A stretch of 32,000 bases of DNA from Caedibacter taeniospiralis. Its GTDB lineage: Bacteria; Pseudomonadota; Gammaproteobacteria; Francisellales; Francisellaceae. The notes under the pieces were generated by a model. It was not told where the DNA came from and ran no database searches. It saw only the letters and a list, made by a program, of their open reading frames with translations. This document shows positions 17,691 to 31,768 of the stretch, piece by piece. The first letter of the stretch is position 1. Each line of letters starts with the position of its first letter. The position numbers and the translations under genes were made by a program. Where the stretch lies: contig NZ_PGGB02000002.1 in NCBI RefSeq assembly GCF_002803295.2, forward strand, positions 1-32,000, in the 5' to 3' direction.

Positions 17691-17765
17691 GCGGGAATAG
17701 CTCAGCGGTAGAGCACAACCTTGCCAAGGTTGGGGTCGCGAGTTCGAACCTCGTTTCCCGCTCCA
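17691..17765 (+). tRNA. glyW: tRNA-Gly (anticodon GCC)
   Basis: Near-identical to E. coli tRNA-Gly(GCC): GCGGGAATAGCTCAG...CCTTGCCAAGG...GGTTCGA-type T arm. Ends in an encoded CCA. Confidence 0.95.
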
Positions 17766-17768
17766 GAT

Positions 17769-17842
17769 GGCTGGGTAGCAAAATGGTTATGCAGAGGCCT
17801 GCAAAGCCTTGGACACCGGTTCGATTCCGGTCTCAGCCTCCA
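17769..17842 (+). tRNA. cysT: tRNA-Cys (anticodon GCA)
   Basis: 74 nt. Acceptor GGCTGGG/TCTCAGCC, anticodon loop CTGCAAA, T arm CCGGTTCGATTCCGG, encoded CCA. Confidence 0.93.
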
Positions 17843-17857
17843 GAACAAAGTTTTAGT

Positions 17858-17946
17858 GCCTGGGTGGTGAAATAGGTAGACACAAGGGACTTAAAATCCC
17901 TCGAGACTTAACTCTCGTGCCGGTTCGACTCCGGCCCCAGGCACCA
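17858..17946 (+). tRNA. leuZ: tRNA-Leu (anticodon TAA), long variable arm
   Basis: 89 nt. Acceptor GCCTGGG/CCCAGGC, anticodon loop CTTAAAA, variable arm CGAGACTTAACTCTCG, encoded CCA. Same Gly-Cys-Leu order as the E. coli glyW-cysT-leuZ operon. Confidence 0.93.
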
Positions 17947-20055: not shown

Positions 20056-20346
20056 ATGACTGAATTTACATTCCAGGCGGAATTAAAAACTGAAACAGGT
20101 ACGGGTGCGAGCCGCCGCCTACGTAAAACAGGTAAAATCCCTGCAATTATCTATGGCAATGGCGCAGAAGCAATTTCAATCTCACTTGATCACAACAAGA
20201 TATTCCACGCTTTAGAAAACAAGGACTTCTACAGTGCAACCGTCAGCATTAACATTGACGGCAAAACTGAAAGCGTTAAAATCAAAGCATTACAACGTCA
20301 TCCATTTAAGCCGAAAATCCTCCACGCCGATTTCATCCGCGCATAA
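20056..20346 (+). CDS. rplY: 50S ribosomal protein L25 (short form)
   Basis: 96 aa. GTGASRRLRKTGKIPAIIYG...LQRHPFKPKILHADF. AAGGA SD upstream. Confidence 0.95.
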   Translation: MTEFTFQAELKTETGTGASRRLRKTGKIPAIIYGNGAEAISISLDHNKIFHALENKDFYSATVSINIDGKTESVKIKALQRHPFKPKILHADFIRA

Positions 20347-20673
20347 ATACTCAATAAGCTTTCAGTACGTGACATCAAAACCTCTTGGCTGATGTCGCGG
20401 TTAATAAGTCTTTAAGTACTTTACTTTCAATATTTGATTATTTTTAACTCATTATAATTACAGGTTCGCAGACGGAACGACGTCAAAGCCGTGATGAATC
20501 ACATTCCCAAATGCACCCTTTAACTTAGTGCCATTGCCCTTTAACTTCGTTTAAGGGGGTGCTTATCCCTTTTGGGCAAAGATCTGACTGGTCATTAATG
20601 CTTAGGTTTTTACTGCTTTTGCTCGTTATTCTCGTTAAAATGTGTAGCTAATGAAAAATAATGAAATACGCTG

Positions 20674-22746
20674 ATGTTAGATAAACTCGACTTATTATTT
20701 GAACTAGGCACGGAAGAGCTGCCACCAAAAGCCCTCAAACAAATGGCACAAAATCTGTTAGATCAGGTGTGCAAGCAGTTAGATGATTTAGACATTGACT
20801 ATCAAGACAAATCGTTTTATGCGTCACCGCGGCGTTTAGCGTTTATCATCAGAAACATTCAAACCATGCAAAAGGATCGCTTAATCGACAAAGAGGGTCC
20901 TTTTATCGATAAAGCTTATGATGATAAAGGTGTGCCAACAAAAGCTGCATTGGGATTTGCACAAGCCTGTGGCGTGGGGTTTGATAAGCTCTCAACCATT
21001 GAGCATCAAAAGGGCAAGCGACTTTTTTATCAGGTTCAGCAACAAGGTCTTAGAACCAAAGACATCATTGGCGAAATCATTGATGGCGCACTCAAAAGAT
21101 TACCCATTCCAAAGATGATGCGCTGGGGAAATGAGGATCATCAATTTGTACGCCCTGTGCACTGGGCGGTGCTATTGCTTGGTGATGGGCTGATTGTGCA
21201 TTCATTCTATGGTTGTAAAACATCTCATATCAGCTATGGTCACCGTTTCCATCACCCTGATGCGATTCATATTAATTCTTCGGCAGAATATGTTGCAAAA
21301 CTAAAAAATGCTCATGTTCTTGTTGATTGGGAAATGCGTAAGTCTACGGTGATTCAGTCTGCAAAGGCTTTGGCTAAATCTCAAGACGCTCATGTAATCC
21401 TAAATGATGAGTTAGTTGAGGAGGTTACGGCTATTGTCGAGTACCCGCATGCACTATTGTGTGACTTTGACCAAAGCTTTCTGCGAGTACCACAAGAGGC
21501 ACTTAGTTCGGCGATGGAAGGTCATCAGAAGTGTTTTGCACTGGTGGATAAAAACAATAAGCTGGTCAATCATTTTATTACCATGAGTAATATCGACAGT
21601 CATGCTCCGCAAACGGTGATTAAGGGAAATAACAAAGTGATGGCTGCACGCTTATCAGATGCGGCATTTTTCTATGATACAGATGTTAAAAAACCGTTAG
21701 ACACCTATATTGAAAAGCTTAAAGTGGTGACGTTTCAGAAGGAGCTAGGTTCGGTTTATGACCGCACACAGCGTATTGCGCTTCTGGCAAAGTCGATCGC
21801 AGGACATATTGGTGCGGATGAAGCGCTCGCCCATCGCGCAGGGCTTCTCAGTAAAGCAGATTTAATGACTGGTATGGTTTATGAGTTTACTGACTTGCAA
21901 GGCATTATGGGTAAATATTACGCACGTGCTCATGGCGAAAATGAAGCCGTATGTGAGGCAATTGAGCAGCAATATTGGCCAAAATATGCAGGTGATCGCC
22001 TGCCAAATGGAAAAGTTGCTCAAGCACTAGCTTTGGCAGAGAAATTAGATACGCTGGTTGGAATTTTTGGCATAGGGCAAAAACCGACAGGTGATAAAGA
22101 TCCATTTGCATTGAGACGTGCCGCGATTGGTGTGCTGCGAATTTTAAAAGAATGCCATGTAAAAATTGCATTATCAACCCTGGTTCAGTTATCGATAGAA
22201 AGCTTCGCACATGATCAGCTTCAAAATATTAACGGGTTGAAAGAAGCCTTAATGCAATTTTTTGTTGATCGCCTAAAAGTTATTTACAAAGAAGAGGGCG
22301 TTGCAGCTGAAATTTTTGAAGCAGTAAGAGCCGTTGCGCATACGGATGTTACTGACTTTGACGCGCGCATCAGTGCTGTAATTGAGTTTAAGACCCATCC
22401 CGCATGTGAGCGTTTAGCACAAAGCAATAAGCGTGTTGCGAATATCCTTAACAAAAATAATGTCAATCAGGTGTTAAGTATCAATAAAGCATTGTTGCAA
22501 GAGCCTGCTGAGTTTACCTTGTTTGAAGCTTTAACCAATACCAAAGCGCGATTAGAATCTATTCTTGCTAATACAGAATATAAAACTGCACTTATGGTGC
22601 TTTCGCAGTTGGATCAACCGATTGCAGATTTTTTTGAGCATATAATGGTCATAGCGGAAGATGAAAGCGTTAAAAATAATCGCTTGGCATTGTTGCAGCA
22701 GTTATCGGTTTTATTTAAACAAGTTGCTGATTTGGCTGTTTTATAG
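20674..22746 (+). CDS. glyS: glycine--tRNA ligase beta subunit
   Basis: 690 aa. N-terminus LLFELGTEELPPKAL, MRWG...FVRPVHW, GDKDPFALRR. Full-length collinearity with E. coli GlyS. No glyQ upstream in this window. Confidence 0.96.
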   Translation: MLDKLDLLFELGTEELPPKALKQMAQNLLDQVCKQLDDLDIDYQDKSFYASPRRLAFIIRNIQTMQKDRLIDKEGPFIDKAYDDKGVPTKAALGFAQACGVGFDKLSTIEHQKGKRLFYQVQQQGLRTKDIIGEIIDGALKRLPIPKMMRWGNEDHQFVRPVHWAVLLLGDGLIVHSFYGCKTSHISYGHRFHHPDAIHINSSAEYVAKLKNAHVLVDWEMRKSTVIQSAKALAKSQDAHVILNDELVEEVTAIVEYPHALLCDFDQSFLRVPQEALSSAMEGHQKCFALVDKNNKLVNHFITMSNIDSHAPQTVIKGNNKVMAARLSDAAFFYDTDVKKPLDTYIEKLKVVTFQKELGSVYDRTQRIALLAKSIAGHIGADEALAHRAGLLSKADLMTGMVYEFTDLQGIMGKYYARAHGENEAVCEAIEQQYWPKYAGDRLPNGKVAQALALAEKLDTLVGIFGIGQKPTGDKDPFALRRAAIGVLRILKECHVKIALSTLVQLSIESFAHDQLQNINGLKEALMQFFVDRLKVIYKEEGVAAEIFEAVRAVAHTDVTDFDARISAVIEFKTHPACERLAQSNKRVANILNKNNVNQVLSINKALLQEPAEFTLFEALTNTKARLESILANTEYKTALMVLSQLDQPIADFFEHIMVIAEDESVKNNRLALLQQLSVLFKQVADLAVL

Positions 22747-27251: not shown

Positions 27252-27314
27252 AAGGGTTAGTGAAAGCTTAATTATCGTGTGCCTAGTCTATACCACTGAA
27301 TTAACAGATTCTAG

Positions 27315-27374
27315 TCATTGTGCCGTGTATCCGCCATCGATGGCAATCTGACTGCCTAGAATAACTGGAGTTAC
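27315..27374 (-). pseudogene. relic of the 3' end of a short-chain dehydrogenase/reductase gene
   Basis: Minus-strand translation gives VTPVILGSQIAIDGGYTAQ-stop (stop at 27317..27315), preceded by an in-frame TAG. This matches the canonical SDR C-terminus (...ITGxxIxVDGGYTA). Another frame just upstream reads ...LGNSSY, which fits the preceding SDR segment, suggesting frameshifts in a degraded gene. Confidence 0.45.
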
Positions 27375-27544
27375 CTAAATGTGTATTGTTTGCCAAATTC
27401 ATCTTAAATCCAGTGACGTTAGGCAATGCAGCTTAGTCAAGTCCTTGCATGAAAATATTCAGGCAAAAAAATGCCGCCTTTGACAAAAAATGCCGTTAGA
27501 ATGACGGCTATATTTTGATGATTTTTGAGTAACAAGGGGCAAAA

Positions 27545-29680
27545 ATGTCTTTGACAGAAGCAACACAAGAAATAGCTTTGCAAGCGGCATCGTTAGATAT
27601 CTGGGATAGTAAGTATCGCTTAAAAACGCGCTTGGGCGAAGCGGTTGATGGAAAAATTGATGATGCCTATAAACGCGTGGCAAAGGCGCTTTCTGAAGTT
27701 GAAAAAACAAAAGAATTACAGCAAAAATCTTATCAAGAGTTTCTATGGGCATTAAGAAATGGAGCTATTCCTGCAGGAAGAATTATTTCCAATGCAGGTG
27801 CTTTGGAACATAAACCTGCCACCTCAACGATTAACTGCACTGTTTCTGGTACTATTTATGACTCTATGGATAACATCTTGCAAAGAGTTCATGAGTCAGG
27901 ACTTACCCTTAAAGCAGGGTGTGGTATTGGCTATGAGTTTTCGACCTTAAGACCAAAAGGCGCCTTTGTTGCAGGTGCGGGGGCGCATACCTCAGGTCCC
28001 ATGTCCTTTATGGATATTTATGACAAGATGTGCTTTACCGTGGCATCAGCTGGAGGCAGGCGCGGAGCACAAATGGGAACCTTTGACGTGGGGCATCCTG
28101 ATGTATTGGATTTTATTCGCGCAAAACGCGAGGATGGGCGCTTGCGCCAGTTCAATCTTTCGCTGTTGATTACCAAAGATTTTATGCACGCAGTTGAGAA
28201 TGATCAGATATGGTCACTGGCTTTCCCAATGTCAGCTGCTGAACAACAAGCACACAATATTGATTTAAACGACTCTACGCAGGTTCTATGGCGTGATTGG
28301 CCGATCAAAGAGGGCTATATTACCGATCCATCAGGACTTGTTGCGTGCAAAATTTACAACACGATCAAGGCGCGTAGATTGTGGGATATGATCATGTCCT
28401 CAACCTATGATTATGCTGAACCTGGGTTCATTTTGATCGACAAAGTTAATGATGACAATAACAACTGGTTTTGTGAAACTATTCGCGCCACAAATCCTTG
28501 TGGGGAGCAGCCATTACCACCTTATGGTTCTTGCCTGTTAGGCTCGGTTAATTTAACGCAATTTATTGAAAATCCATTTACAGATAGCGCAAGTTTTAAT
28601 TGGGAAAAATATCGTAAGGTTGTGCGCATTTTTACGCGCATGCTCGATAACGTCGTTGAGATTAATGGCTTACCATTGAGCGAGCAACGTCATGAGATTG
28701 AGTCAAAACGTCGCCATGGCATGGGGTTTTTGGGCTTGGGGTCTGCTATTACCATGCTTAAAATGAAATATGGTAGTGAGACTTCCGTGGCGTTTACCGA
28801 AAAAGTTGCTAAAGAGATGGCACTGGAAGGTTGGCGCGAAGGCGTGAGGCTCTCGAAAGAAAAAGGCAGCGCTCCAGTGCTTGAGAAAGACTATACGGTG
28901 GCTCATGAGTTTTTACGCTTGCGCCCTGAAATGGCTGCTGACGGTATTAAAGCGGGTGATGTTATTAAAGGGCGTCTCTTACACGCGAAATATAGTCGTT
29001 ACATGCAGCGCATTGCACAAGAGGATATTTCAATTATTGATGCCATTTGTGAGTATGGTTGTCGTTTTACGCATCATACCTCCATTGCGCCGACGGGTAC
29101 GATTTCGTTGTCTTTGGCTAATAACGTCAGTAACGGCATTGAGCCAAGTTTTGCCCATCATTATGCGCGTAATGTTATTCGTTCGGGTAAAAAAACCAAA
29201 GAAAAAGTAGATGTATTCTCATATGAGCTACTAGCCTATCGCCATTTAGTGAATAAAGAAGCGATGCCATTTGCCAAGGAGGAAGCACATAAGCTGCCTG
29301 ATTATTTTATCAGTGCCGATAATGTGTCTCCAAAAGAGCATGTGGATATTCAGGCTGCCGCACAAAGATGGGTGGATTCAAGTATTTCCAAAACGGCTAA
29401 TGTACCTACAGATTTCCCCTTTGCTGATTTTAAAGACATCTACCTTTATGCCTATCATCAGGGACTTAAAGGCTGCACGACGTTTAGGTTTAACCCTGAA
29501 GTTTTCCAAGGTGTGCTGGTTAAAGATGAGGATCTTGAGAAAACACTTTATCGTTTCACCCTTGAGGATGGCTCAATAGTTGAGTTAAAAGGTAATGAAA
29601 TGATTGAATACGATGGTGAAGAGCACAGCGCTGCAAATCTCTATGATGCCTTGAAAGAGGGGTATTATGGGAAATTTTAA
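27545..29680 (+). CDS. nrdJa: class II (adenosylcobalamin-dependent) ribonucleotide reductase, large N-terminal polypeptide NrdJa
   Basis: 711 aa with active-site segment ATNPCGEQPLPPYGSCLLGS and class II RNR collinearity. Ends ...AANLYDALKEGYYGKF, as expected for the a-part of a split NrdJ. Confidence 0.93.
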   Translation: MSLTEATQEIALQAASLDIWDSKYRLKTRLGEAVDGKIDDAYKRVAKALSEVEKTKELQQKSYQEFLWALRNGAIPAGRIISNAGALEHKPATSTINCTVSGTIYDSMDNILQRVHESGLTLKAGCGIGYEFSTLRPKGAFVAGAGAHTSGPMSFMDIYDKMCFTVASAGGRRGAQMGTFDVGHPDVLDFIRAKREDGRLRQFNLSLLITKDFMHAVENDQIWSLAFPMSAAEQQAHNIDLNDSTQVLWRDWPIKEGYITDPSGLVACKIYNTIKARRLWDMIMSSTYDYAEPGFILIDKVNDDNNNWFCETIRATNPCGEQPLPPYGSCLLGSVNLTQFIENPFTDSASFNWEKYRKVVRIFTRMLDNVVEINGLPLSEQRHEIESKRRHGMGFLGLGSAITMLKMKYGSETSVAFTEKVAKEMALEGWREGVRLSKEKGSAPVLEKDYTVAHEFLRLRPEMAADGIKAGDVIKGRLLHAKYSRYMQRIAQEDISIIDAICEYGCRFTHHTSIAPTGTISLSLANNVSNGIEPSFAHHYARNVIRSGKKTKEKVDVFSYELLAYRHLVNKEAMPFAKEEAHKLPDYFISADNVSPKEHVDIQAAAQRWVDSSISKTANVPTDFPFADFKDIYLYAYHQGLKGCTTFRFNPEVFQGVLVKDEDLEKTLYRFTLEDGSIVELKGNEMIEYDGEEHSAANLYDALKEGYYGKF

Positions 29681-29691
29681 GGAATACAAAA

Positions 29692-30282
29692 GTGGGTATT
29701 AATGTATTACCTGAATATGTTCGCAGGCACTACGAAATCTATGAATATAAACATGCTTGTGCGATTCTCAAAGAGGACTTTCCAAATGAGTGGGCAGATA
29801 TAGTTTCGTTGCTGGAAGCCTTTAGGTTAAAGAAGAGCTGGATTATTCAATCTGGAGGGCGTAAATCAAAGGTTGCTGAGTATATTGACAACTATTTGTA
29901 CGCCATGGGGTGGGTTGAAAAACAATTTAGCACCCAAGTAATTGTAGATGATGTGACTTATAATTCTCCGACTCACAAGGTTGACTGCTTCAAAAATAGG
30001 GTTGCATTGGAAATAGAGTGGAATAATAAAGACCCTTTTTATGATCGATATTTAAATAACTTCAGATTGTTGTTTGATCTTAAGGCTGTTAGTGTTGGAA
30101 TTATTATCACTCGTTCGGACGAGTTACAGACAATATTCAATGATCTTGGGCGCGGACAATCTTATGGTGCTTCAACGACACATCTTGGCAAGCTCTTACC
30201 AAGGATTGAGGGAGGTGGGGGTGCTGGTTGTCCGTTGCTTGTGTTTGGTATGAAAAGTAATTTGTTTGAAGAGGATATTTAG
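29692..30282 (+). CDS. type II restriction endonuclease, BamHI/BglII-like fold
   Basis: 196 aa. GTG start with AAGGA 8 nt upstream. VDCFKNRVALEIEWNN gives D98-x8-E107-x-E109 (nt 29983-30018), arranged like BglII D84-x8-E93-x-Q95 and the BamHI ExE. VGIIITR follows, as with BamHI LAIILMP. Adjacent to a DNA methyltransferase. Confidence 0.7.
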   Translation: MGINVLPEYVRRHYEIYEYKHACAILKEDFPNEWADIVSLLEAFRLKKSWIIQSGGRKSKVAEYIDNYLYAMGWVEKQFSTQVIVDDVTYNSPTHKVDCFKNRVALEIEWNNKDPFYDRYLNNFRLLFDLKAVSVGIIITRSDELQTIFNDLGRGQSYGASTTHLGKLLPRIEGGGGAGCPLLVFGMKSNLFEEDI

Positions 30283-30903
30283 GTGGGTGCTAAAGAAGAT
30301 TTTATGAATGAACTAAAGGGGCGAAAGTTTAAAACCATTTTAGCCGATCCTCCCTGGCAGTTTCACAATCGAACAGGTAAGGTGGCGCCAGAGCATAAAA
30401 GATTAACTCGATATCCGACTTTGGTTTTGGATGAAATTAAGAAACTTCCTGTCGTAGAGATCGCAGATGAGACTGCACATTTGTATCTATGGGTACCCAA
30501 TGCGTTGCTGGCTGAGGGACTTGAAGTCATGCAAGCCTGGGGATTTACTTATAAAACCAATTTGGTGTGGTATAAGGTGCGCAAAGATGGGGGTCCTGAT
30601 CGTAGGGGCGTCGGTTTTTATTTTAGGAATGTTACGGAAGTAATATTGTTTGGTACGCGCGGAAAAAATGCACGGACTTTGCCTCCTGGGAGGAGTCAGG
30701 AAAATATTGTGTTATCAAGAAAACGCGAGCATAGTAGGAAACCTGATGAACAATATGATTTGATTGAGTCCTGCAGTGCGGGTCCTTATTTAGAGTTATT
30801 TGCTAGGGGGGCTCGAGAGAATTGGTGTGCCTGGGGAAATCAGGTAGAAAACTACAAACCTGATTGGGATACCTATGCCAATCATTCACAGGCATCAAGG
30901 TAA
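30283..30903 (+). CDS. MT-A70 family DNA methyltransferase (beta-class, probable N6-adenine)
   Basis: 206 aa. DPPW catalytic motif at residues 22-25 (nt 30346-30357). C-terminal ELFARGARENWCAWGNQ is typical of MT-A70 enzymes. The GTG start abuts the nuclease stop (TAGGTG) with GAGGA upstream. An alternative ATG lies at 30304. Confidence 0.85.
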   Translation: MGAKEDFMNELKGRKFKTILADPPWQFHNRTGKVAPEHKRLTRYPTLVLDEIKKLPVVEIADETAHLYLWVPNALLAEGLEVMQAWGFTYKTNLVWYKVRKDGGPDRRGVGFYFRNVTEVILFGTRGKNARTLPPGRSQENIVLSRKREHSRKPDEQYDLIESCSAGPYLELFARGARENWCAWGNQVENYKPDWDTYANHSQASR

Positions 30904-30918
30904 CTTTGGGAGAATAAA

Positions 30919-31611
30919 ATGGCAGTAAAGATAGAGAAAAAGATCACTGGGTTTAATATTGTAAAAGCGAATGAGAAGTTGCTGGATGCCGCAACAAAGC
31001 CAGTTAAAAAAGAAAAAACGCATCTACAGATGAGTGAGAGTGTTAAGCGCCCTGAGTCACTTACGGGAGAAACCTATAAAATTAAGCCGCCTCAGGCTGA
31101 GCATGCTTTATATGTGACTATTAATGATATTGTATTAAATGAGGGAACTGAGCATGAGGTGCGTCGACCTTTTGAGATTTTCTTAAGCTCAAAAAATATG
31201 GAGCACTTTCAGTGGACCATTGCTTTAACACTCATTATTTCAGCGGTGTTTCGCAAAGGCGGCGATGTTACTTTCCTGGTTGAAGAGTTAAGATCAGTAT
31301 TTGATCCAAATGGTGGTTATTTAAGGCGTGGTGGTAAATACGTCCCCTCGCTTGTTTCAGAAATAGGGGATGTGATCGAAAAGCATCTTAAAAAGATTGG
31401 CATGTTACCACAGGATGACTTGGATGAAACACAAAAACTCTATATTGCAGCTAAGCGTCAAGAGCTTGATGAGCGTCAACAGCCAAGTAATGATACAAGC
31501 AATAGTTTTCCGCTTGAGTCACAATTATGTGTCAAATGTAGCACCAAAGCCATGGTGAGAATGGATAACTGTTTGACCTGTCTTAATTGCGGTTATTCCA
31601 AGTGCGGTTGA
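30919..31611 (+). CDS. nrdJb: class II ribonucleotide reductase C-terminal polypeptide NrdJb (TSCPD domain)
   Basis: 230 aa. RPESLTGETYKIKPP...ALYVTINDI...RPFEIFLSSKN is typical of the TSCPD domain. C-terminal Cys cluster CVKCSTKAMVRMDNCLTCLNCGYSKCG. GGGAG lies 6 nt upstream of the ATG. Confidence 0.88.
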   Translation: MAVKIEKKITGFNIVKANEKLLDAATKPVKKEKTHLQMSESVKRPESLTGETYKIKPPQAEHALYVTINDIVLNEGTEHEVRRPFEIFLSSKNMEHFQWTIALTLIISAVFRKGGDVTFLVEELRSVFDPNGGYLRRGGKYVPSLVSEIGDVIEKHLKKIGMLPQDDLDETQKLYIAAKRQELDERQQPSNDTSNSFPLESQLCVKCSTKAMVRMDNCLTCLNCGYSKCG

Positions 31612-31768
31612 GTTTTTAGCTATTAGGACTCTAGGTTGGAGTGATAACTCCAGTAATAAATTGGCTGTAAAGCGCTAAAAACCATGATATTTTTGATTGA
31701 CGATTAGGCGTTGTTTTGCGATGATGCCCACTTATTTTGCATATCAATACCCGAAAAAAGTTAAATTC

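Follow-up and report, generated by a model that had tools for sequence, protein, structure and literature searches.

Restriction-modification (R-M) units that insert into operon-like gene clusters are an established category (PMC2993543), and in Neisseria meningitidis the R-M system NmeDI lies between pheS and pheT (PMC7973814). In phage Aeh1, the ribonucleotide reductase gene nrdA is split by the free-standing homing endonuclease gene mobE, and the enzyme stays functional (PMC3045599). Almost all gammaproteobacteria with the class II ribonucleotide reductase NrdJ are described as encoding it in two genes of one operon, nrdJa and nrdJb, with the split at one specific point (PMC4520616). Here we analyze the first 32,000 nt of contig NZ_PGGB02000002.1 of Caedibacter taeniospiralis, hereafter the window, in which a gene for a BglII-family restriction endonuclease (R) and a gene for an MT-A70-family DNA methyltransferase (M) lie between nrdJa and nrdJb, and we compare the window with loci of relatives, coded L001 to L180.

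The locus shares with NmeDI a type II R-M pair on the same strand between two subunit genes of one housekeeping enzyme, the lack of a mobility gene, and empty sites in relatives; it differs from NmeDI in that the nrdJ site hosts other types of cargo and in that intermediates of swap, decay and deletion were recovered. The reductase itself has the same split point as Pseudomonas aeruginosa NrdJa/NrdJb, with a catalytic NrdJa and a Cys-rich NrdJb that are both intact, but whereas the P. aeruginosa genes are described as one operon (PMC4520616), the halves in the window are 1,238 nt apart, with two foreign genes and the accompanying spacers filling the distance. As in Aeh1 nrdA, the large-subunit gene of a ribonucleotide reductase is in two pieces around a nuclease-encoding gene. 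However, mobE is a homing endonuclease that made the split, while the insert in the window is an R-M pair and the split is older: empty split sites are common, so the nrdJ split predates the cassette.

We consider it probable that R and M form a compact type II R-M cassette that was acquired horizontally into the nrdJ spacer, has been exchanged through its flanks, is expressed by read-through and is replaceable, with R possibly weakened. Profile searches identify the two open reading frames (ORFs) as the nuclease/methylase pair proposed in the original prediction, with R matching Endonuc-BglII (PF09195, E=9.6e-43, 146 bits versus a cut-off of 26) and M matching MT-A70 (PF05063, E=5.9e-32, 111 bits versus a cut-off of 23.9) as well as PADLOC MTase_II (4.7e-88). 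R and M are separate adjacent genes with one domain each and no specificity subunit, ATPase or helicase, which is the gene layout of a type II system. The cassette had been placed exactly between the two nrdJ halves, and re-reading of the ORFs gave the same gene order and coordinates (Table 1), the same spacers of 11, 0 and 15 nt and a Shine-Dalgarno for each gene, with both halves and the nrdJb Shine-Dalgarno intact.

Table 1. Coordinates of the nrdJa-R-M-nrdJb locus in the window and of sites within it discussed in the text.
Feature	Position	Strand	Description	Evidence
nrdJa	27545..29680	+	711 aa	TIGR02504 NrdJ_Z, 571 bits (cut-off 400); Pfam Ribonuc_red_lgC, 2.2e-125
Left junction	29681..29691	+	11-nt spacer; R Shine-Dalgarno AAGGAA overlapping the nrdJa stop	Read from sequence and empty-site alignment
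R	29692..30282	+	Type II restriction endonuclease of the BglII/BstYI family, GTG start, 196 aa	Pfam PF09195
Deleted R segment	29916..30250	+	335 bp, absent with frameshift in Fastidiosibacter lacustris GCA_003428155 (L092)	Pairwise alignment
Y120 codon of R	30049..30051	+	TAT; single GAT to TAT change	Asp in 73/73 homologues
M	30283..30903	+	MT-A70-family circularly permuted DNA methyltransferase, 206 aa, GTG start	Pfam PF05063
Last 22 nt of M	30882..30903	+	Codons HSQASR and stop	Equal to the L176 string TCATTCACAGGCATCAAAGTAA
Right junction	30904..30918	+	15-nt spacer with native nrdJb Shine-Dalgarno	Junction alignments
nrdJb	30919..31611	+	Cys-rich C-terminal domain half, 230 aa, intact	TSCPD

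All four genes are on one strand, each preceded by a purine-rich Shine-Dalgarno-like stretch, and the GTG start of M abuts the stop of R (TAG followed directly by GTG), abutting or overlapping R and M genes being a trait of the family. The GTG starts of both genes are backed by homologues: relatives of R start with MGI or MSI, and the M of Cysteiniphilum has, in the corresponding position, an ATG that overlaps the stop codon of R. As in a complete split class II ribonucleotide reductase, each NrdJ half aligns over its full length with those of relatives. The host is a Cysteiniphilum-like bacterium of the family Fastidiosibacteraceae: its NrdJa shares 89% identity with that of Cysteiniphilum sp. 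QT6929, 86% with that of Fastidiosibacter lacustris and 84% with that of Facilibium, and NrdJb, at 80-87% identity to its relatives (87% in Cysteiniphilum), matches Pfam TSCPD with 29.4 bits (cut-off 22.8) and the C-terminus of NF006417 and carries a C-terminal Cys cluster. The surrounding genes are those of a core chromosome (ftsH, htpG, hemE, hslU, prs, glyS and mfd), and we found no integrase, transposase or mobility gene in the window or in L081.

Foreign origin of the cassette had been argued from codon bias, and it is now also supported by empty sites in five relatives and by cassette identity that exceeds flank identity. AGG accounts for 4/10 Arg codons in R and 6/17 in M, or 10/27 (37%) over the cassette, exactly as counted by hand in the original prediction, compared to 18/389 (4.6%) in the 18 other ORFs of the window (Fisher p=1.4e-6). 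GC content was rejected as a sign of foreignness in this host, where the cassette shows no contrast (0.415 versus 0.422); in GC-richer hosts, the R-M family usually has lower GC than its flanks (80 unrelated metagenome contexts). Uninterrupted nrdJa-nrdJb sites with spacers of 15-31 nt are present in Facilibium subflavum (L001), Thiotrichales 19S3 and 19S9 (L002, L003), a metagenome-assembled genome (MAG) from ENA (L093) and Fangia hongkongensis (L177, L178). Alignment to the empty Facilibium site delimits the insert as essentially the two ORFs, with the native nrdJb Shine-Dalgarno kept on the right (GGGAGAATAAA in the window, TGGAGAAAAA in Facilibium). The locus thus shows the features of an insertion into an operon-like cluster: empty sites, co-oriented flanking genes, and neither long repeats nor a mobility gene linked to it.

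Comparison with cassette-bearing relatives points to a recent event. F. lacustris GCA_003428155 (L092) holds the cassette at the same site, with nucleotide identities to the window of 97.3% in the surviving part of R, 97.1% in the first 518 nt of M and 84.5% in the last 103 nt of M, compared to 76.4% in nrdJa and 75.6% in nrdJb. The gap between a cassette at 97% and nrdJ flanks at 76% shows that the cassette has recently moved by horizontal transfer into this same position. In Cysteiniphilum sp. QT6929, the cassette is only 74.5% identical to that of the window despite an nrdJa that is the closest of all (79% by nucleotide, 89% by amino acid), and cassette and host phylogenies therefore disagree. 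The R-M family is mobile and very widespread: besides chromosomes, its carriers include 13 plasmids and phages of Nitratiruptor and Mesorhizobium. The R homologue of Nitratiruptor phage NrS-3 (L175:2501-3088, LC545444.1 NrS3_08, 65% identity) is labeled 'methyltransferase' in GenBank; it is a BglII-family endonuclease, and the true methyltransferase is the next gene.

The spacer differs between two genomes of one species in a way that suggests how cargo moves. In F. lacustris GCA_024208055 (L091), nrdJa and nrdJb are about 100% identical to those of L092, and the spacer holds a gene for a 602-aa ATPase-Toprim/OLD-like protein (L091:3092-4900; matches to AAA_21, PADLOC ATPase-Toprim_I-B, PtuA, AriA and GajA). 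The difference between the two genomes starts about 35 nt before the nrdJa stop and ends 16 nt before the nrdJb ATG, breakpoints from which exchange by recombination through the nrdJ flanks would follow. These flanks are 72-89% identical in protein across the class, and we infer that the cassette would have arrived, and would be exchanged, by homologous recombination through them and not by a transposase or integrase. A search for flanking repeats, target duplications or conserved cassette ends found none, with short chance repeats only. Over the last ~350 nt of nrdJa, similarity among cassette-bearing lineages exceeds similarity to empty-site genomes by about 10 points. We rejected this elevation as a recombination tract specific to the L092 cassette, as cassette-less L091 shows the same elevation, and it is suggestive of an older co-transfer.

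Relatives also preserve stages of loss. In L092, the 335-bp deletion leaves R frameshifted and M intact, and in the window the corresponding segment is bounded by direct TGAAAA repeats (29916-29921 and 30251-30256). L176 is a very close relative, with 98% nucleotide identity in the nrdJa tail and 94% in nrdJb, in which the nrdJa stop is followed by 6 nt, then by TCATTCACAGGCATCAAAGTAA, and then by spacer and nrdJb, with the nrdJb Shine-Dalgarno intact. This string is the end of M, and because the NHSQ tail of M is conserved in M homologues of unrelated hosts, we read it as the scar of an M deletion and not as ancestral spacer. Cysteiniphilum sp. QT6929 carries nrdJa-R-M followed by unrelated genes (L082; CP103983.1, 23-36 kb), and its nrdJb is found on the opposite strand of that chromosome, about 380 kb distant (L180; CP103983.1, 403-421 kb), so that the break in the operon falls where the cassette ends on the right. 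Detached nrdJb genes are likewise found in other Cysteiniphilum genomes, and no M scar is recognizable upstream of the relocated Cysteiniphilum nrdJb. Upstream of nrdJb, QT6929 and the 6C5 group have two very large ORFs (1,918/1,919 and 1,018/1,027 aa) that gave no match in a Pfam and PADLOC search, and in GCA_008711525 histidine-utilization genes stand in their place (Cysteiniphilum loci compared: L082, L094, L179 and L180).

R is linked to BglII/BstYI by Pfam and by fold comparison only, since sequence searches of the PDB, with the single sequence or with a 20-sequence profile, failed to find BglII, BstYI or BamHI. An AlphaFold model of moderate quality (predicted local distance difference test score (pLDDT) 61, predicted template modeling score 0.66) returned BstYI as its top three Foldseek PDB matches, with probabilities of 0.60-0.95. 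The putative catalytic residues D98 (29983-29985), E107 (30010-30012) and E109 (30016-30018) belong to a D-X8-E-X-E signature conserved across the family. Alignment of 73 homologues gives 80 columns with conservation of 95% or more, and R deviates at three: W19Y and R131K, which QT6929 has too, and D120Y, which is unique to the window and falls within residues 112-131, where pLDDT is below 50. D120Y may have impaired, weakened or changed the enzyme. The family is very large and highly conserved: more than 7,998 homologues of R at ~72% identity include sequences from Desulfobacterota and Competibacteraceae, and R is always paired with an MT-A70 gene that follows it, in all 80 metagenome loci and in L082-L086. 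Palindrome counts in sequences of 32-70 kb, used to look for an avoided recognition site, gave no GAATTC in the window against 4.3 expected, a deficit not repeated across carriers, and no depletion of hexamers with a GATC core.

M shows no deviation at 95 conserved columns in the same test that was applied to R, and its differences from the F. lacustris M are overwhelmingly synonymous (2 nonsynonymous of 16 in the first ~520 nt); purifying selection acts on M, which is probably active. It aligns across its catalytic domain with its closest PDB matches, ciliate MTA1 and METTL3, and its motif IV reads DPPW (residues 22-25, window 30346-30357). Asp-type motif IV is the adenine form, N4-cytosine enzymes carrying Ser at that position, and the MT-A70 clade falls within the prokaryotic methyltransferases that belong to R-M systems of BglII type (Iyer et al., 2016, PMC4738411); the product of M is therefore predicted to be N6-methyladenine, and the pairing of R with M is canonical. 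With R-M systems of BglII/BstYI type that carry an MT-A70 enzyme, the cassette shares the domain pair, the order R then M, the D-X8-E-X-E/Q signature and a permuted M with N-terminal motif IV. M.BglII is an N4-cytosine enzyme, and the cassette departs from the BglII type in the DPPW motif, which predicts N6-adenine methylation, in the lack of a sequence-level PDB match for R, and in D120Y.

The sequence around the cassette fits co-transcription of R and M with nrdJ. The original prediction had noted junctions free of terminators and promoter hexamers; a consensus scan agrees, since the + strand has no promoter-like site from 29458 to 31697 and none of the three junctions has a terminator-like one, and it places two weak terminator-like hairpins inside M. 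Because the cassette has neither promoter nor terminator of its own, R and M would most probably be transcribed by read-through from the nrdJ promoter. Each would be translated from its own Shine-Dalgarno, with M translationally coupled to R through the abutting stop and start codons. Upstream of nrdJa, an Rfam search gave neither a cobalamin riboswitch nor any other element, its only matches in the window being three tRNAs. The region upstream of nrdJa (27252-27544) contains a TTGACA hexamer at 27481-27486 without a properly spaced -10 element.

Several points weigh against a transferred, flank-exchanged and read-through-expressed R-M cassette. Recombination through the flanks is read from breakpoints in two genome pairs, and the first insertion, before any flank-mediated exchange, is left unexplained by the model. 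Protein conservation could account in part for the higher identity near the 3' end of nrdJa. There is a weak internal promoter-like site in the 3' end of nrdJa (29429-29458, 9/12 matches), and a non-sigma-70 promoter may also be present. Finally, the R of the window is substituted at an invariant Asp and may be dead.

This last point is the core of a different explanation, which we hold tentatively and regard as distinctly less probable: that the cassette is no longer a working R-M or addiction system and that, along the usual path of R-M decay, R has become inactive or attenuated and leaves a solitary adenine methyltransferase riding on nrdJ transcription. In its favor, R has Tyr where 73/73 homologues have Asp, M deviates at 0/95 conserved columns, and the 97%-identical F. 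lacustris copy has lost R by a frameshifting deletion with M intact. Between the window and F. lacustris, the surviving 5' part of R has 3 nonsynonymous and 3 synonymous differences, compared to the low nonsynonymous share in M. However, F. lacustris, with its R already dead, could be the sole source of this signal of relaxed selection, and the R of the window has a full-length ORF that keeps D98, E107 and E109; a single substitution may leave activity in place. The original prediction of a 'selfish' R-M module thus stands as regards the R-M pair, but it presumes an active nuclease, which D120Y puts in doubt.

We find it quite improbable that, as was first proposed, a selfish R-M module is stabilized inside an important operon because its deletion would damage nrdJb expression. 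The tight same-strand packing without promoter or terminator would favor such stabilization, as would the reported need for nrdJb in vivo and the single operon of nrdJa and nrdJb (Crona et al., 2015, PMC4520616), and the fact that at least four lineages (the window, QT6929, F. lacustris and, as a scar, L176) have a cassette or remnant there. The relatives nevertheless contradict the claim that the cassette is hard to delete: L176 shows a near-clean deletion with nrdJb and its Shine-Dalgarno intact, L091 and L092 a clean gene swap between identical flanks, and L092 the loss of R alone, while the Cysteiniphilum nrdJb works as a separate locus ~380 kb from nrdJa-R-M and many relatives have empty sites. 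As these loci read, the cassette is a replaceable passenger and is not locked in, since the nrdJ spacer in relatives repeatedly gains, swaps and loses small defense or addiction genes.

The range of cargo in this spacer extends well past the R-M cassette. Among 76 gammaproteobacterial loci with both halves, the spacer is shorter than 300 nt in 41 and holds an insertion of at least 300 nt in 35. Methanotroph spacers (L005:8127-8672, L012:8155-8690, L016:8294-8542 and L033:3644-4626) contain toxin-antitoxin-type pairs, DUF4160 with DUF2442 (Methylomonas-type) and MqsR with MqsA (a Methylobacter MAG). L038:8164-11903 and L047:3908-7700 have inserts of 3.9 kb and 4.2 kb with a DUF3800 gene, a DUF6161/AbiZ-like gene and several ORFs without a family match. 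About 30 Xanthomonadales loci (L019-L077; e.g. L028:8220-8750 and L077:8366-8887) carry in the spacer a conserved + strand, Lys/Ala-rich histone-H1-like gene with AKKA repeats and high GC at third codon positions, which gave no Pfam or PADLOC match and was recognized from the composition of its + strand product; it is absent from at least two Lysobacteraceae loci (L037, L067). We found nrdJ beside this R-M family in 0/80 metagenomic loci, and the only other case was a distant cousin placed directly past nrdJb on the same strand in a Lysobacterales MAG (L076:9762-11337; BglII-family R at 26% identity, and MT-A70 M at 67% fused to a C-terminal HTH_58). Since none of the 80 metagenomic loci adjoins nrdJ, the association belongs to the site rather than to the cassette.

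Chromosomal defense-system hotspots are places where variable defense cargo lies between conserved core genes. The nrdJ spacer resembles them in that variable defense or addiction cargo is exchanged between strains with near-identical flanks, but unlike them it is tiny (one or two genes), intra-operon, promoterless, without an integrase backbone and between the halves of one enzyme. Unrelated cargo occupies this spacer between conserved flanks, also within one species (L091/L092), in a comparison confined to this spacer. These data hint that the nrdJ spacer may be a small recombination hotspot from which cargo is readily swapped, degraded or lost.

The recurrence of unrelated defense-type cargo (R-M, OLD-like ATPase, AbiZ-like, and toxin-antitoxin pairs), together with the distant BglII/MT-A70 pair directly past nrdJb in L076, could also be taken to mean that the linkage is adaptive, with defense or addiction genes induced along with the B12-dependent reductase under replication stress, low oxygen or phage-induced demand for deoxynucleoside triphosphates (dNTPs). 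We give this little credence: the metagenomic members of the R-M family do not adjoin nrdJ, the cargo also comprises a histone-H1-like gene and ORFs of unassigned function, and a permissive spacer with very conserved flanks is the simpler account. It is very improbable that a site-specific mobile element (integron cassette, transposon or homing-type) targets the nrdJ split, even though two alleles (97% and 74.5% to the window copy) sit at the same site in different lineages, because there are no terminal inverted repeats or target duplications, 15 nt is too short for attC, no integrase or transposase is nearby, homologues lie in many unrelated contexts without common non-coding ends, and the swap breakpoints fall inside nrdJa and at the nrdJb Shine-Dalgarno. 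The Pfam search for a homing-endonuclease domain (HNH, GIY-YIG or LAGLIDADG) in the cassette gave BglII and MT-A70 only.

A broader proposal, which we offer as speculation and think unlikely, is that the gammaproteobacterial nrdJ split is a conserved, integrase-free landing pad within an operon, where small defense and addiction genes would be exchanged by recombination through the extremely conserved flanks and hitch-hike on nrdJ transcription, and that the ancestral split of nrdJa from nrdJb may itself have been made by an insertion, like that of mobE in Aeh1 nrdA.

Other features of the neighborhood are recorded here in their own right. The three tRNA genes of the window form a cluster downstream of hslU (17691-17943). 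In the region 20056-22746, the ORF before glyS (glycyl-tRNA synthetase beta subunit, 20674-22746) is ribosomal-protein-L25-like rather than glyQ, and no glyQ-sized ORF lies upstream of glyS in the window; this is possibly another two-subunit enzyme with non-adjacent genes in this genome. Most Fastidiosibacteraceae loci (L089-L093, L177, L179 and L180; e.g. L094:10701-11192) have a conserved ORF of 160-166 aa without a Pfam match ~8 nt past nrdJb. In the window, the next ORF begins ~160 nt past nrdJb (31770) and is secreted-protein-like, unlike the 160-166-aa ORF of relatives.

Taken by itself, the cassette adds one example to the R-M units known to have inserted into operons. The original prediction had supposed the arrangement to be undescribed; this holds for nrdJ, as our literature search found no paper on cargo between nrdJa and nrdJb or on the spacer as a hotspot, but R-M units in operon-like clusters were already known (PMC2993543, PMC7973814). 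Annotators should be aware that nrdJa and nrdJb may be non-adjacent. One short site shows nearly every stage of the life cycle of an R-M system, from empty to intact, recently transferred, stripped of R, replaced, scarred and rearranged, and the spacer of a split enzyme of essential type tolerates and repeatedly collects cargo. The nrdJ spacer is thus a tractable natural system for the spread of promoterless defense or addiction genes by flank recombination, and one suited to asking whether expression of the cargo follows the regulation of dNTP supply and whether selfish insertions create split genes.

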